5,749 nt of DNA, from sequence record NZ_CP102537.1; one strand, written 5' to 3'. The notes below the pieces were generated by a model that was not told where the DNA came from, did no database searches, and was given only the letters and a program-made list of their open reading frames with translations. Made by a program: the position numbers and the translations under genes. Below, piece after piece: positions 1 through 5,749 of this stretch (position 1 is the first letter of the stretch; the number at the start of each line of letters is the position of its first letter). Source of the DNA: a plasmid.

Positions 1-196
1 GACACCGAAAGAGCCAACGAAGAACGCGGACGAGGAGGGCCGAAACAATTCCAAAACGAAAGTGCGCAGCTTCAGTGTCCGCCTTGACCTTTGGGAGAAG
101 CTGGACACCTATCGAATCACACACCGCACCAAATCTGGGACAATCCCCTCGGCTTCAAGCATAGTAAACGAAGCCCTTGAAGCCTACCTCAAATGA
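1..196 (+). CDS. 3'-partial CDS entering from before position 1, read in the frame of position 2, stop TGA at 194-196. Translation: ...TPKEPTKNADEEGRNNSKTKVRSFSVRLDLWEKLDTYRITHRTKSGTIPSASSIVNEALEAYLK*. C-terminal ribbon-helix-helix-like fold, with a putative beta-strand (KVRSFSVRL) followed by two helices. Candidate ParG-type partition adaptor/repressor.
   Basis: Hand translation of frame 2 shows no stops from position 2 to 196. The basic-strand/helix/helix pattern is typical of small RHH proteins. It continues in frame the partial ORF at 5688-5749 if the sequence is circular. Confidence 0.5.
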   Translation, partial: TPKEPTKNADEEGRNNSKTKVRSFSVRLDLWEKLDTYRITHRTKSGTIPSASSIVNEALEAYLK

Positions 197-275
197 CTAT
201 GACACTATCAACTATGACACTATGACACTATCAACTATGACACTATCAACTATTACACCATGACACTCATAGTTG
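194..275. repeat. Iteron-like direct-repeat array: five perfect copies of ATGACACT at 199, 214, 222, 237 and 260, and one degenerate copy ATTACACC at 252. Three copies are separated by the 7-bp spacer ATCAACT, giving a 15-bp period. The array is closed by an inverted element TCATAGTTG at 267-275, which is the reverse complement of CAACTATGA.
   Basis: Read directly from the sequence. It lies between two convergent genes, the RHH ORF stop at 194-196 and the rep stop at 253-255, and overlaps the last codons of rep. Confidence 0.85.
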
Positions 276-1737
276 GCAGATAGTCCCCCGGTTTGGCTTC
301 GCCATCAGCTATGGCGTCCTGCTGTTCGTCAGTGAGTATGACGCCACCGGGCAAGAGCCGTGCGACTTCCTGCCAGTCTTCGCGTTCGGCGGCATCCAAT
401 GCGTCGGCCAGTGTCTCAGGCGCACTCTTGCGAATGTCTTTGTAAACCCGATTCGGCACGACATAGCCGACCAGACCGGGCAGTTCGTCGGCTTTCTCCG
501 CCAGCTCCTCGTCTTCCAGTTCCTCGACCTCCATGTCTTCCTTGAGGCCACGCGACCATGTTATGCAGCGGCGGCGCAGAGTGGCCTGCCAGTATTCGAG
601 CCAGAGATCTTCGCGCTGGAAATCGGACAGCCCGAGGCACCCGGAGTCCAGCAATTGGAACGGGTTAACCGACCCCATACGACCATTCTTGATATCGCCG
701 CGCGCGATTTCCTGAGCCAGAGTGACGCCGCCTTTGTCGCCTTGAATCTTGGTGATGTATTCGGCCGCAGCGGTTCCGGCGTCCTTGCCCGACTTGAATT
801 GCAGATCTATGCCGTGTTCGTCGTTCGGGGCGACGTTGTAGGGGTTGCCGTCTTTTTTCTTGTATGCCTTGGCAACGCGCTTGACCATGGTTTTCCAGCG
901 ATCGAGCAGCCATTGCTGCATTGCCTCACGCTGCCCATCGTCCAGATCGCCATCGAGAAACATGACGAAATGAATGTGAGGGTGCCAGCCGTTCACACCG
1001 TAGGTGATTTCAATCGCGCGGACGAAACCCCTGATTTTCCAACGTTCCGAGGCCCGTTGCCAAGGGCTTCCGTTAATCATCTTCGTCCAGCCCTTGAGGA
1101 TTGCGTCAAGGGTCATGGCCAGCGGCATTGTCCGATCATGGCGCAGGGTGAGGGTGCCGAAGATGTAGTTTCCGAAGCTGTCGGACACCATGAGTTCCGG
1201 CGGCAGACGCTGCCCCTCATGTTCTGCCTGCCATTGGTCGGCGGCGGCTTTCCTCAGTTTCTCGGCATGGTTCCCGATGGCGAGGGCGACCTCGTGGGCG
1301 CGTTCGTGGCGAATGATTGCCGAGCAGGTGGGGCATGCCCAGATCGAGCCGCACAGCATGGTGCCTGTAAACCGGGCTTTCTCGCCGTTGGTCATGACAC
1401 CCACGCCGGTGTCCACCGGTTGGCCGCAGCGTGCGCAGCGCGGCAGCTTAATCGGCTCGAATCCGAGCGTTTCGCCACCGGCATGACGGACGAGAATCTT
1501 TCGGCTTTCAGCGCGGCGACCATACGCCAGACGCCGTAAATCGGTGCGGGAGAGGGAGGGGGTTATTTTATTCGTCTTTTCCCAAGGCGGGCCGCTACGC
1601 GCCCCGCTTGCCGCTTCCGCGGCTACGCCTTGAGGCTTCGCCGCTACTGCGGCGTGCAGCCGTTCGGCGGTCTGGTGCTGGGACGGTGAAGGGACACCCA
1701 TCGGGTTCCACTTCGTCCCCTGAGTTGGTACACTCAT
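253..1737 (-). CDS. rep: Rolling-circle replication initiator (HUH endonuclease superfamily Rep), 494 aa.
   Basis: The three RCR motifs occur in canonical order. Motif 1 is FGTLTL at aa 193-198. Motif 2, the HUH motif, is GWHPHIHFVMF (H252/H254/H256, nt 970-984). Motif 3 is AAEYITK with catalytic-Tyr candidate Y327 (nt 757-759). An N-terminal CxxC...C...CxxC cluster (C101, C104, C129, C135, C138) is zinc-ribbon-like. ATG at 1735-1737. The C-terminal tail is acidic. Confidence 0.88.
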   Translation of the reverse strand: MSVPTQGTKWNPMGVPSPSQHQTAERLHAAVAAKPQGVAAEAASGARSGPPWEKTNKITPSLSRTDLRRLAYGRRAESRKILVRHAGGETLGFEPIKLPRCARCGQPVDTGVGVMTNGEKARFTGTMLCGSIWACPTCSAIIRHERAHEVALAIGNHAEKLRKAAADQWQAEHEGQRLPPELMVSDSFGNYIFGTLTLRHDRTMPLAMTLDAILKGWTKMINGSPWQRASERWKIRGFVRAIEITYGVNGWHPHIHFVMFLDGDLDDGQREAMQQWLLDRWKTMVKRVAKAYKKKDGNPYNVAPNDEHGIDLQFKSGKDAGTAAAEYITKIQGDKGGVTLAQEIARGDIKNGRMGSVNPFQLLDSGCLGLSDFQREDLWLEYWQATLRRRCITWSRGLKEDMEVEELEDEELAEKADELPGLVGYVVPNRVYKDIRKSAPETLADALDAAEREDWQEVARLLPGGVILTDEQQDAIADGEAKPGDYLPTMSVMV

Positions 1738-1789
1738 AGTGACGACTTTCTAAAGTTGTAGCCAGCGGTGCAAAGTTTGGCGACCTAGA

Positions 1790-1799
1790 CCGCTAGCGG
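1790..1799. promoter_or_regulatory. Perfect 10-bp palindrome CCGCTAGCGG in the rep upstream region. Possible operator or Rep/regulator binding site.
   Basis: Self-complementary 10-mer lying 53 bp upstream of the rep ATG, between the candidate -35 (TTGAAA, complement of 1802-1807) and -10 elements of a leftward promoter. Confidence 0.3.
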
Positions 1800-1811
1800 A
1801 CTTTCAAGATT

Positions 1812-3657: not shown

Positions 3658-3825
3658 TCATTCCTCCATTCGAGCGAGCATTGCGGGCACTTCCGCTTCC
3701 ACAAGACGGTTGATGATGCTGGAGCGCGAAGTGTTGGTGTACCCCTCACGCTTGGCCCTATAGACGGCATCGTCCAGAGCGGCGACGGTGGTGCAGGGCA
3801 ATGTGATGCAGATACGGCGAAGCAT
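3658..3825 (-). CDS. Ribbon-helix-helix (CopG/Arc/MetJ-type) DNA-binding protein, 55 aa: MLRRICITLPCTTVAALDDAVYRAKREGYTNTSRSSIINRLVEAEVPAMLARMEE. Likely operon repressor.
   Basis: An N-terminal beta-strand (RICITLP) followed by two helices is the typical RHH layout. ATG at 3823-3825 preceded by GGAGGAGGAG, 5-nt spacing. The longer ORF-track start at 3930 lacks this RBS and would overlap the upstream gene. Confidence 0.6.
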   Translation of the reverse strand: MLRRICITLPCTTVAALDDAVYRAKREGYTNTSRSSIINRLVEAEVPAMLARMEE

Positions 3826-3827
3826 TT

Positions 3828-4223
3828 TCACTCCTCCTCCAACGACGGCATGATGGGCGCTGTATCCAGCTGCATGACCCGTACGGAATCGGCGGTCAGA
3901 GACCATGCGACGCGGCCGTTCCTGACCCACGGAACGACGTGAACGGAGCCGGTCAGCTGGATACGGGAGAGCGGCGGAACAGGCGAGATAGGCGCAGTGA
4001 ACACGGCAAGGCTGACGTTGCTATCCACACCGTTTTCGTCGATGTACTGGCAGGGAATCTGGAAAACCGGGCGACCGTCAACGAGTTTTGGCGTGGTTGT
4101 CACGTGCCCCTGATCGTCGTACGTCATCTTCTGCCGGATAGTGGCGGGGTCGATTCCCCGCGTCGTCTGAAACGCGCCGGGAATGTCGGCGGCGTTCATG
4201 GCGAGGTTCGGACTGAATGGCAT
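3828..4223 (-). CDS. Hypothetical protein, 131 aa from ATG 4221-4223. Composition suggests a beta-rich fold. First gene of the leftward operon.
   Basis: GGGAG RBS 6 nt upstream of ATG 4223. The longer GTG start at 4337 would lie inside the promoter/operator region, upstream of the predicted -10. Stop TGA at 3828-3830 lies 2 nt before the RHH ATG. Confidence 0.5.
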   Translation of the reverse strand: MPFSPNLAMNAADIPGAFQTTRGIDPATIRQKMTYDDQGHVTTTPKLVDGRPVFQIPCQYIDENGVDSNVSLAVFTAPISPVPPLSRIQLTGSVHVVPWVRNGRVAWSLTADSVRVMQLDTAPIMPSLEEE

Positions 4224-4246
4224 GAAAGCTCCCTTCGTGAGTTGTA

Positions 4247-4329
4247 GCTGGGGCACGGGATTGCGCCCCAGCGGACTTTCACCAAACAGCATACAGGCAT
4301 ACCTGTATATTGTCAACAGTTTAAACTGT
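4247..4329. promoter_or_regulatory. Cluster of dyad symmetries in the divergent intergenic region. An 8-bp-stem hairpin GCTGGGGC...GCCCCAGC (4247-4272) falls in the 5'UTR of the leftward operon. The inverted repeat ATACAGGcataCCTGTAT (4291-4308) sits inside the promoter spacer. A perfect 14-bp palindrome ACAGTTTAAACTGT lies at 4316-4329. CTGTAT/ACTGTA motifs recur at 4303-4308, 4325-4330 and 4344-4349. Likely operator sites.
   Basis: Read directly from the sequence. The sites overlap the candidate promoters of both divergent transcription units. Confidence 0.5.
4288..4316 (-). promoter_or_regulatory. Candidate sigma-70-type promoter for the leftward five-gene operon. The -35 TTGACA is the complement of 4311-4316, followed by a 17-nt spacer. 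The -10 TATGCT is the complement of 4288-4293.
   Basis: Perfect -35 hexamer with canonical spacing, read on the minus strand. The spacer contains the inverted repeat ATACAGG-n4-CCTGTAT (4291-4308). Confidence 0.4.
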
Positions 4330-4358: not shown

Positions 4359-4862
4359 ATGAATCAGCCAAAATTCGACATCATTCCCGACGAAACGAAC
4401 CGGGAACACAACACCAGAACCAAAGCGGCACTGGAGCTGCTGGAAAGCAACAAAGAATTACGCGACTGGGCAAAAACCCACTTCCTCGCAGAATTACGCA
4501 ACATGATTACCAATCAGATAGTCGAGGAAGGTCATGAACTCTCAGACGAACTCATGAAGTACGGCGTACGACTGTGCCCCAAAGTCGCCATGGTTTGGAT
4601 CGCCAATGAATTGGAGAACAACGTGGGCGCGATTACAGAATGGCTTGCCGGTTTTGCCTACTGGGAGGGCGACAGCAAGGCAAATCTTGCAAGGGCTGTA
4701 GGAATACGCCAACAAAGCTACGCCACCCATTTCCGGCAGCTAGAAGAAATCGCAGCAGCCCAAAACAAGGCCGACGAAACCGGACAAGACCAAACAATCA
4801 GCCTCCGAGGGGCACCATTCATAATTCACCCCGGACCCAGCGAAGAAGAAGACCAGGAATAA
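4359..4862 (+). CDS. Hypothetical protein, 167 aa, with a helix-turn-helix-like segment (SKANLARAVGIRQQSYATHFRQL) and an acidic C-terminus. Possible regulator. Lower-GC module.
   Basis: Long ORF with coding-like composition and no SD. A TATGAT -10-like hexamer (4347-4352), preceded by TG, ends 6 nt before the ATG, which suggests a leaderless mRNA. Confidence 0.55.
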   Translation: MNQPKFDIIPDETNREHNTRTKAALELLESNKELRDWAKTHFLAELRNMITNQIVEEGHELSDELMKYGVRLCPKVAMVWIANELENNVGAITEWLAGFAYWEGDSKANLARAVGIRQQSYATHFRQLEEIAAAQNKADETGQDQTISLRGAPFIIHPGPSEEEDQE

Positions 4863-4910
4863 GTGTTCTTGTTTTCTTTCATGCGGGATTGTGCGTTCCG
4901 GCCACCGGAG

Positions 4911-4973
4911 AGTCAAATCTTCAAACCGCGAGGCGGTTTGGTGTGTCTATATAGACACACATCAGATTTGACT
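4911..4973. repeat. Nested dyad-symmetry element. Outer 10-bp arms AGTCAAATCT (4911-4920) and AGATTTGACT (4964-4973) enclose a hairpin CAAACCGC-gag-GCGGTTTG (4922-4940) and a perfect 20-bp palindrome GTGTGTCTATATAGACACAC (4941-4960). Candidate centromere/operator for the par module, and/or terminator of the upstream ORF.
   Basis: All symmetries are perfect and were read from the sequence. The element lies 49 bp after the stop of ORF 4359-4862 and about 120 bp before parA. Confidence 0.55.
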
Positions 4974-5079
4974 ATCCGGCGTCCTCCACTGGGATTTCGC
5001 ATTTAGAAAGAAAACCAGAACCGGAAAACATTCGTCAGCGAACCACCAAAACTATTACACTATCAGAATATTAGTGCGA

Positions 5080-5085
5080 TAGAAT
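5080..5085 (+). promoter_or_regulatory. Candidate -10 hexamer TAGAAT, 6 nt upstream of the parA ATG, with no SD. This implies a leaderless parA transcript.
   Basis: Same -10-to-ATG geometry as at ORF 4359-4862. An iteron-like segment ACTATTACACTATCA (5051-5065) lies just upstream. Confidence 0.3.
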
Positions 5086-5091
5086 AACGGC

Positions 5092-5691
5092 ATGATACTT
5101 AGCATTATCGCGTCAAAAGGCGGAACCGGGAAAACGACCAGCAGCATATTCCTAGCCTGCGCCGCTCATACCGCAGACCCGTCACTGTCAATCACCCTCT
5201 TGGACGCCGACCCACAGCAAAGCGCCACGGACTGGGCGGAAGAAGCCGAGCAAAACAAAGACCCGCTCCCTTTCATGGTCAAATACGCCGGAGAATCGGA
5301 CATCGAAAACCTAAAGGACAACGAGGGCCTGACCATCATCGACACGGCACCGGGATTCACCGACCTCACCCAGACAATCATCGCCAAATCAGATCTGTGC
5401 ATCATCACCACCTCACCAACCCAGATTGACGCCCGGAGGGCTTGGAAGACGTTCGAAGCAATCCAAAGAGCAGGCGGAACCTCGGCAATCCTCATCACAC
5501 GAGCCAATACGCGCACGAAGGATTTCAGGGATATGATCGACGACCTGCACAACGACGACGCGAACAATGGAATCCTCTTCGATACCGTCATCAGACAATC
5601 GACCAGATACTCGAAGCCGTTCGGACACACGCCAAAGAAAACCTACGACTATGCAGACGCATGGCAAGAGATACAGAAAGCAGGGGAATGA
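5092..5691 (+). CDS. parA: ParA/Soj-family partition ATPase, small type Ib form, 199 aa.
   Basis: Deviant Walker A KGGTGKTT at the extreme N-terminus (MILSIIASKGGTGKTTS). Walker A' is DADPQ and Walker B is IIDTAPG. Its size and the absence of an N-terminal HTH fit the ParF-like subclass. Confidence 0.88.
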   Translation: MILSIIASKGGTGKTTSSIFLACAAHTADPSLSITLLDADPQQSATDWAEEAEQNKDPLPFMVKYAGESDIENLKDNEGLTIIDTAPGFTDLTQTIIAKSDLCIITTSPTQIDARRAWKTFEAIQRAGGTSAILITRANTRTKDFRDMIDDLHNDDANNGILFDTVIRQSTRYSKPFGHTPKKTYDYADAWQEIQKAGE

Positions 5692-5749
5692 TGGCACTCG
5701 GAAAATTCAGCAGGAAAGCAGCCGAACAGGCACCCGGCGACATCTCAAT
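5688..5749 (+). CDS. 5'-partial CDS, MMALGKFSRKAAEQAPGDIS..., that runs off the window end. Its start overlaps the parA stop as ATGA. Candidate N-terminal flexible tail of a ParG-like centromere-binding partner. It is in frame with the partial ORF at 1-196 across the end-to-start junction.
   Basis: ATG 5688-5690 overlaps TGA 5689-5691. The frame is open to the end. The last two bases AT plus base 1 G form ATG, and the frame continues into the frame-2 ORF ending at 196. Confidence 0.45.
   Translation, partial: MMALGKFSRKAAEQAPGDIS

Follow-up and report, generated by a model that had tools for sequence, protein, structure and literature searches.

A proposed type Ib centromere and operator beside a parA/parG-like cassette on a small Bifidobacterium-type plasmid

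Type Ib partition systems combine a small ParA with a small dimeric ribbon-helix-helix protein, which acts as both repressor and centromere binder and has a flexible, arginine-bearing N-terminal tail, and with sites made up of short direct and inverted repeats (PMC5016525). In the TP228 system these sites are 4-bp boxes separated by 4-bp spacers, eleven of them direct and one inverted, each of which binds one ParG dimer; removing boxes lowers the activity, and further boxes, set apart from these, provide the promoter operator (PMC3130281). The omega protein of pSM19035 likewise serves as both repressor and centromere binder (PMC5016525), and in pB171 the par2 construct has the order parC1-parA-parB-parC2 (PMC4270457). 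Here we describe an array of short repeats on a complete circular plasmid of 5749 bp (sequence record NZ_CP102537.1; this whole stretch is called the window below), where it lies between a gene for an 84-aa ParG-like protein and a convergent rep gene. Judging from sequence comparisons, the array is probably the main cluster of binding sites for the ParG-like protein, that is, a type Ib centromere, and a small cluster of the same motif at the parA promoter would be the corresponding operator.

The array contains five exact copies of ATGACACT within positions 199-267 (starts at 199, 214, 222, 237 and 260), all on the plus strand. Dinucleotide shuffles give an expected count of 0.09, and none of 200 shuffles reached five copies. 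A degenerate unit, ATTACACC, occupies 252-259, and in these counts the initial annotation, made from the sequence before this analysis, was correct. The same annotation had also described a uniform 15-bp period, and had called this non-helical period unusual. The apparent period results from counting only the perfect units: with the degenerate unit included, the start-to-start spacings are mixed (15, 8, 15, 15 and 8), and each 15-bp step is made up of an 8-bp unit and a 7-bp degenerate unit, ATCAACT (at 207, 230 and 245). The supposed anomaly vanishes once these 7-8-bp sub-units are recognized. Nine tetranucleotide boxes, either ACAC or CAAC, recur through the array at a spacing of 7-8 bp (202, 209, 217, 225, 232, 240, 247, 255 and 263). 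The array is closed by CATAGTTG at 268-275, which is indeed an inverted copy, as had been claimed, but it matches CAACTATG, the junction formed by the end of a 7-bp unit and the start of an 8-bp unit, rather than the 8-mer itself. The features of theta iterons, namely helically phased repeats of 17-22 bp together with a Rep3/RepA-type initiator, are not found here; the units are contiguous and 7-8 bp long, and the initiator is of the Rep_1 type.

The location of the array between the convergent genes, overlapping the rep 3' end, was also described correctly, and both genes take their stop codons from it. That of the parG-like gene is held in a partial unit, ATGACT (193-198), and that of rep is the complement of 253-255, the TTA within the ATTACA unit at 252. 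The G+C content of the array is 35%, versus 57% for the plasmid, and no significant single-strand fold was found in it (-6.6 kcal/mol, z = -1.08). The array sequence is identical across three independent assemblies from different sequencing runs, and it is therefore no assembly artefact. In the L006 and L010 types (L numbers denote the loci compared), the array differs in length from that of the window by exactly 30 bp, or four sub-units, while the flanks are conserved. This variation is consistent with an elastic site in which the number of sub-units matters and the exact geometry does not.

The motif recurs in the parA promoter region, in both direct and inverted orientation (Table 1), as expected for an autoregulating centromere-binding protein; at the sequence level, these units overlap the putative promoter of the operon. 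The inverted degenerate unit AGTGCGAT, which reads AGTGTGAT in L006, overlaps a -10-like hexamer, TAGAAT (5080-5085), that ends 6 nt before the parA ATG. A TACAAT, TAGAAT or TACAGT hexamer is also found 6-7 nt before the parA start in L006, L010, L014 and L023. The closeness of the hexamer to the ATG, and its recurrence in four relatives, suggest a leaderless parA mRNA made from this putative promoter. A simple promoter scan called no canonical promoter on the parA strand.

The initial annotation had named three possible users of the array, namely Rep (as a binding site or the double-strand origin), the ParA/ParG-like pair (as a centromere) and an FtsK/TraB-like translocase (as a clt-like locus), and it had proposed that related plasmids be compared to see with which gene the repeats co-vary. 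Relatives were gathered by means of ParA homologues (51-97% identity) and a profile of the small protein, and their contigs were then fetched; the motif was scored as exact matches to AT[G/T]ACA[C/G]T, with the core ACAC/CAAC. The repeats proved to co-vary with the parA/parG-like cassette, which supports the centromere option. The parA and small-gene pair is present in all 11 related loci, and it stands alongside at least four kinds of replication gene: Rep_1 (the window, L006, L010, L014 and L023), Rep3 (L019), RepA_C (L018, where the motif has diverged) and a 401-417-aa protein with a superfamily-3 helicase domain (L016, which is a closed circle, L021 and L028). In L020 the context of the cassette is a helix-turn-helix protein. 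In all of these relatives except L018, units of the motif are found in both orientations within 300 bp upstream of parA, with units at 10-100 bp from it, the upstream units of L023 being degenerate only. Units directly downstream of the small gene are found as well in the Rep_1 clade and in L016 and L021. Those of L016 are degenerate (CATACAGT), and in the downstream array of L023 the units are inverted, with AGTGTCAT twice and then ATGACACT. A cluster of short repeats beside the operon thus co-varies with the cassette across replicons, and the three par-less Rep_1 plasmids pASV479, pB21a and pIJ101 contain no match to the motif.

This association was also counted. Across nine loci (a set that leaves out the window and its near-identical relatives), 28 of the 38 exact motif matches fall within the 6% of the sequence that flanks the cassette, defined as 300 bp upstream of parA and 90 bp downstream of parG; the density is 42-fold higher there (binomial P = 5e-26). 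An enrichment of 6-mers in the flanks that used no prior motif and did not include the window gave TATGAC, ACACTA, ATGACA and GACACT as the top words, each in 7-8 of eight loci. A further pattern in L018 was considered, in which the beta-strand and the motif appear to change together (KTFNVE versus KSFS[IV]R in the protein, ATGACG[GT]T versus ATGACA[CG]T in the DNA). It was not counted, because it involves one lineage and a weak motif count (3 matches to ATGACG[GT]T versus 0.32 expected).

ParA is also of the type Ib kind, and the small protein is probably so. ParA is a small Walker-type protein of about 200 aa without an N-terminal DNA-binding domain, with Pfam matches to CbiA, VirC1 and AAA_31. 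Its best solved homologue is ParF of TP228 (4dzz, E = 9e-11), and the TP228-type ParA 5u1g is also matched. The small putative centromere-binding gene lies directly downstream in the same operon, and its start codon overlaps the parA stop (ATGATG/TGA); the 84-aa gene is also called in L002 and L003. No Pfam or NCBIfam match was found for the 84-aa protein, and its close family likewise has none in Pfam. An alignment of the family shows a conserved N-terminus, MAxxxFSRxxAExAPG, and a conserved C-terminal stretch of 45 residues, with R8 invariant in 12 sequences. In an AlphaFold2 model of the 84-aa protein (12 homologues), residues 1-40 are of low confidence (block means 48-56) and are followed by an extended segment and by helices at 48-60 and 71-83, with pLDDT values of 79-86. 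This predicted arrangement corresponds to a ribbon-helix-helix monomer that has a flexible tail.

Profile comparisons of the small protein gave faint signals in the same direction. With hhalign, the ribbon-helix-helix domain of omega could be matched to the family in register (E = 0.0014, probability 18%), and only the last helix aligned with ParG. A PDB profile search gave weak matches only (E = 0.2-0.7), among them a CopG-family chain (E = 0.66), and five of ten more distant family representatives match RHH_1, RHH_3 or RHH_5 only, just below threshold. A ribbon-helix-helix fold for the 84-aa protein is likely. The family appears to be narrow, with 25 representatives recovered by an exhaustive profile search of 1.84 billion proteins. 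In a weaker variant of the improbable dual-role reading discussed below, this small and narrowly distributed family might constitute an undescribed centromere-binding lineage that gives rolling-circle plasmids active partition.

The locus most resembles TP228 parFGH in its overall design. Both have a small ParA (the nearest solved homologue of the window protein being ParF itself) and a small downstream protein that has, by prediction in the window, a flexible N-terminal tail and a C-terminal strand-helix-helix unit. Both also have short boxes that recur about every 8 bp, most of them direct and accompanied by an inverted box, in an array of roughly 80-100 bp, plus an operator at the promoter (PMC3130281). 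There are clear differences, however: the 84-aa protein has no detectable similarity to ParG beyond the last helix, the boxes are ACAC/CAAC rather than ACTC, the main array is downstream rather than upstream of the genes, and the window belongs to a rolling-circle replicon of a Gram-positive actinobacterial host. The delta/omega system of pSM19035 offers a further match in the layout of the sites, which are contiguous units (7-bp heptads for omega, 7-8 bp in the window) in direct and inverted orientation without helical phasing (PMC5016525), and which are likewise grouped into several clusters at separate places on the plasmid. Among the profile alignments of the small-protein family, the one with omega is the best, though weak. 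Unlike the overlapping parA and parG-like genes, omega and delta are transcribed separately; pSM19035 is also a theta replicon, and its omega is linked to copy-number control, a role for which there is no evidence in the window.

The position of the array after the genes finds a parallel in par2 of pB171, also a type Ib cassette, which has a site cluster on either side, at the promoter and behind the second gene, although its repeats differ in length and sequence and its host is enterobacterial. Details of these flanking sites are reportedly given by Ebersbach and Gerdes (2001) and by Ringgaard et al. (2007). Finally, the ParA/ParB system of pCXC100 from Leifsonia xyli also belongs to a small actinobacterial plasmid and uses a ribbon-helix-helix centromere binder on repeats that are all direct (PMC5016525), but its centromere is upstream.

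If the array is a type Ib centromere, the following scheme would apply, in which we infer DNA binding, the placement of one dimer on each sub-site, ATPase stimulation, repression and partition activity. At each 7-8-bp sub-site, a dimer of the 84-aa protein would place a two-stranded beta-ribbon in the major groove, and about nine to ten dimers would coat the array of roughly 80 bp co-operatively to form a partition complex. The disordered N-terminal tails, with R8, would then contact nucleoid-bound ParA-ATP and stimulate its ATPase, and this engagement would position plasmid copies apart before division. Protein bound to the promoter unit pair, which overlaps the parA -10 region, would repress the parA-parG operon. 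The overlap with rep is a by-product of the tight packing of the convergent genes.

Several points weigh against this interpretation. Rolling-circle plasmids are usually multicopy, and active partition is not expected to be needed for them. The match of the window ParA to the NCBIfam model ParA_partition (E = 4.9e-30) scores 104.6 bits, below the curated cut-off of 180, and the AT-rich nature of the flanks in a GC-rich plasmid somewhat inflates the enrichment statistics. GTGTCAT-type arrays also occur in unrelated contexts, so that the motif alone is not diagnostic and the argument rests on its family-specific association. In L019 and L020 all of the sites are upstream, and only a GC-rich hairpin is found downstream. 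The textbook type Ib centromere is upstream of the operon (PMC5016525), and the downstream array could be an accessory site and not the centromere. This choice, between centromere and accessory site, is the main uncertainty.

One alternative is that the ParG-like protein does bind the array, but as a second operator or as a roadblock between the convergent parAG and rep transcription units, with the functional centromere at the upstream site. Such a role would fit the absence of a terminator-like hairpin between parG and rep, where the array shows no significant fold of its own, and the replacement of the array by a GC-rich hairpin in L019 and L020; the downstream site of L016 and L021 is a long palindrome, and the classical position of the centromere is of course upstream (PMC5016525). 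However, the upstream site of the window has just two units, one of them degenerate, versus nine to ten downstream, and this imbalance favors the centromere reading for the window plasmid. In TP228, centromere activity scales with the number of boxes, and a single pair of boxes binds weakly (PMC3130281). Furthermore, par2 of pB171 provides an example of a type Ib system with a second centromere site behind its genes, and a roadblock or operator function would in any case not preclude a centromere function. We consider this alternative unlikely. It is also quite unlikely, in our estimate, that the ParG-like protein on the array has a second role as a barrier between the converging units, sitting over the rep stop codon, such that its occupancy tunes Rep expression or the 3' end of the rep mRNA and thereby links partition to copy number. 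A link of that kind would be akin to the one made by omega in pSM19035.

A third possibility is that the array is a clt-like site for the FtsK/TraB-like ATPase, serving, as its Streptomyces counterparts do, in the conjugal transfer of double-stranded DNA. There is some resemblance: Streptomyces TraB proteins recognize arrays of 8-bp repeats, and the clt/TRS sites of pSVH1, pJV1 and pWTY27 are arrays of 7-9-bp direct repeats on plasmids that encode an FtsK-like ATPase. In pWTY27, the clt bound by TraA contains four TGACACC repeats, which strikingly resemble ATGACAC(T/C) (PMC3583192). The window ATPase also matches the NCBIfam TraB model weakly (E = 1.7e-6). Nonetheless, the motif does not co-occur with the ATPase gene among the relatives, and this contradicts the proposal of the initial annotation. 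The FtsK-like ATPases of pASV479 and pB21a are 61% and 63% identical to that of the window, neither plasmid has par, and neither contains a single copy of the motif. Conversely, the motif is present on the contigs L019, L020 and L018 (not closed), which have no FtsK-like gene. The motif also sits in the parA promoter, and in the window the whole rep gene separates the array from the ATPase gene. The 286-aa ATPase covers the motor core only of the TraB model (positions 251-421 of 639), and neither a recognizable C-terminal winged-helix or other DNA-reading domain nor any further domain match was found for it in Pfam and NCBIfam. A transfer site is thus very improbable.

Even less probable is a role in replication, whether as a binding site for Rep or within the double-strand origin. 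This option was suggested by the way in which the array abuts and overlaps the rep 3' end, since some rolling-circle plasmids have origins in or near rep. However, the motif does not co-vary with the Rep family: it is missing from the par-less plasmids with the same Rep family (pASV479, with a 52% identical Rep, pB21a and pIJ101), and it is present on replicons with Rep3, RepA_C or helicase-type genes. The L027 contig carries both Rep_1 and par, separated by about 1 kb, and the motif accompanies par, away from Rep_1. In L028 the gene downstream of the cassette encodes a methylase rather than Rep, and units still surround the cassette. The array also lacks a nick-site-like CTTGATA and a stable hairpin, and a better Rep-linked candidate exists in the hairpin upstream of rep that is kept in six of six Rep_1 plasmids, with or without par. 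Lastly, we give almost no credence to the idea that the array arose by slippage in an AT-rich intergenic spacer and has no function; its unit number does vary between close relatives, but the same 8-bp motif is found at the same two positions where ParA is only 51-66% identical, in both orientations, and in the promoter as well.

The initial annotation had further argued that placing the site inside the coding end of rep would couple the evolution of Rep to that of the site. This was overstated, because only a non-conserved tail of 4-7 residues and the stop codon of Rep lie in the array. In the window these are the last seven codons (PTMSVMV) and the stop. The conserved part of Rep ends in ...DGEAKPGD[Y/F]L, and the tails that follow are PTMSVMV, PTMSVIV, PCNTVVL, SVIV and SVIV in the par-bearing plasmids and PKRE in pASV479, which has no repeats at the rep 3' end. 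Judged by these endings, the tail is a read-through into the array until the first stop, with no demonstrable coupling between Rep and array. The start of rep, ACTATGAGTGTACCAACT (1723-1740, minus strand), resembles the array and was entertained as a third binding site that would control rep. It was rejected as unsupported: this stretch codes for MSVPTQ, the conserved N-terminus of Rep, and the par-less pB21a has this N-terminus as well (as MSIATQ) with the core motif lost. An 11-mer, ACTATGAGTGT (minus strand), is shared between this rep start and the rep 3' end within the array (263-273), so that Rep begins MSVPT and ends PTMSVMV; this match is probably a coincidence.

The Rep_1 plasmids carry other structured elements. 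Upstream of rep, at window positions 1745-1800 on the rep-coding strand, a hairpin of the form GAAAGTCCGCTAGCGGTC - loop - CCGCTGGCTACAACTT is also found in L006, L010, L014, pB21a and pASV479. The loop is GTCGCCAAACTT in the window, L014 and pB21a; in L006 and L010, which are closely related, it reads AGTTTGGCGAC, the reverse complement, so that it has been flipped between relatives. No counterpart of this loop was found in pIJ101. The hairpin is a candidate for a Rep-linked cis element, either an origin or a control region. No conserved pC194-type nick sequence (CTTGATA or CTTGGCG) was found in the non-coding DNA of six Rep_1 plasmids. The same design, GAAAGTCCGCT - GC-rich hairpin - AGCTACAACT, recurs at 4240-4290, before the operon that starts at 4223 on the minus strand, and with this resemblance both minus-strand operons carry the same hairpin-containing leader or promoter module. 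A third element (4905-4980, plus strand), between the 167-aa gene and parA, consists of strongly structured nested inverted repeats, with an outer stem CCGGAGAGTCAAATCT / AGATTTGACTATCCGG and two inner hairpins, AAACCGCGAGGCGGTTT and the perfect palindrome GTGTGTCTATATAGACACAC. Its single-stranded DNA fold is -31.3 kcal/mol (z = -7.3), and in the L010 homologue all three helices are kept through at least six compensatory pair changes. This element is a candidate for the single-strand origin of the rolling-circle plasmid, or for another structured cis site.

The coordinates of the genes and sites are collected in Table 1. One assembly consists of a 5779-bp contig with a 30-nt terminal overlap; the window is circular, and the parG-like gene spans its two ends. 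The same plasmid sequence was assembled from three independent sequencing runs. The exact sequence of the window ParA is found in a Bifidobacterium breve RefSeq entry, WP_010891329.1. From this ParA match and from its 5.75-kb size and host, the window is presumably pCIBb1 of B. breve NCFB 2258 (O'Riordan and Fitzgerald 1999, cited in PMC4007704) or a close relative. A near-identity search of PLSDB with the whole window returned a 33-bp match only. Among the Rep proteins in PLSDB, the one from B. pseudolongum pASV479 comes closest (52% identity); that of B. breve pB21a (37%) and those of the Streptomyces pIJ101 group come next. No Rfam match was found anywhere in the window.

Table 1. Positions of the genes and proposed sites in the 5749-bp window
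Feature	Position	Strand	Remarks
Main repeat array, proposed centromere	197-275	+	between the parG-like and rep genes
Proposed operator in the parA promoter	5054-5085	+	unit ATTACACT at 5054-5061; inverted degenerate unit AGTGCGAT at 5073-5080
parA, 199 aa	5092-5691	+	small Walker-type partition ATPase of the ParF-like type Ib kind
parG-like, 84 aa, 5' part	5691-5749	+	conserved N-terminal tail MALGKFSRKAAEQAPGDI
parG-like, 3' part (gene wraps around the circle)	1-196	+	predicted strand-helix-helix C-terminal domain; TGA stop at 194-196 in the first partial repeat
rep	253-1737	-	Rep_1 / pIJ101-like rolling-circle initiator, Pfam E = 1e-11
FtsK/TraB-like ATPase, 286 aa	1864-2724	-	first gene of an operon with five further genes
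167-aa gene	4359-4862	+	

Several neighboring observations bear on the wider family of these plasmids. The FtsK-like operon contains a 55-aa open reading frame (3658-3825, minus strand), MLRRICITLPCTTVAALDDAVYRAKREGYTNTSRSSIINRLVEAEV..., that looks strand-helix-helix, like a second small ribbon-helix-helix regulator; no family match was found for it in Pfam and NCBIfam scans. The backbone of L023, which is shared with the window and has the FtsK-like operon, parA, parG-like and Rep_1 genes, lies at 113897-126127 of a 165,684-bp contig of Bifidobacterium boum (GCA_021531155.1), and may be an integrated copy or a mis-join. In L016 (7798 bp, closed circle), L027 and L028, related par cassettes are accompanied by genes for an EcoRI-type methylase and a GmrSD/HNH nuclease, on superfamily-3 helicase-domain replicons, and L027 (14 kb) looks like a cointegrate of a helicase-type plasmid with a Rep_1/FtsK plasmid. 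In pASV479 (L004), the position of parAG is taken by a 193-aa gene (orf 72-653), convergent with rep and preceded by TCTATCGATAG-type palindromic repeats. These repeats lie at 4743-4815 and 1-70, with further copies inside the gene, and gene and repeats together may be a different stability or regulatory module in the same slot.

ParA was used to scan genome collections, first as one sequence and then in the form of an alignment; the only matches were distant proteobacterial ParA proteins (25-32% identity). The alignment of the ParG-like family lacked a segment sufficiently conserved for such a scan. Exact scans of metagenome and viral collections with the 16-mer ATGACACTATGACACT returned 160 loci, none of which encodes a relative of the window ParA or ParG-like protein. 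Five of these contigs, of low and middle GC content (L093, L122, L176, L196 and L201), carry dense (A)GTGTCAT / ATGACA(C/G)T arrays beside large primase/helicase-like genes, and these look like iterons of other replication systems. The loci with clusters are unrelated repeat arrays beside primase/helicase-like genes, or satellites.

No literature on the partition sites of these Bifidobacterium plasmids was found in a literature search that was incomplete. What is new here is most likely a type Ib centromere and operator for a small unannotated centromere-binding family on Bifidobacterium-type plasmids, an element of a kind that is already known. It is mildly unusual to find a partition module on a rolling-circle plasmid, and to find the main array behind the genes, both of whose stop codons it contributes. 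Conceptually, the finding would add little beyond another type Ib system. If confirmed, it would also have practical consequences, since cloning vectors for Bifidobacterium are built on plasmids of the pCIBb1 group. Operator, parA, parG and array together would make a compact stability cassette of about 1.1 kb that could raise vector retention; if the array is indeed the centromere, it would also be an incompatibility determinant to avoid in vectors. In the design of minimal replicons, neither a replication origin nor a transfer site should be read into the repeats. If confirmed, the analysis would define both the cis site and the protein that binds it for a partition module that is shared by small Bifidobacterium plasmids and moves between unrelated replicons.

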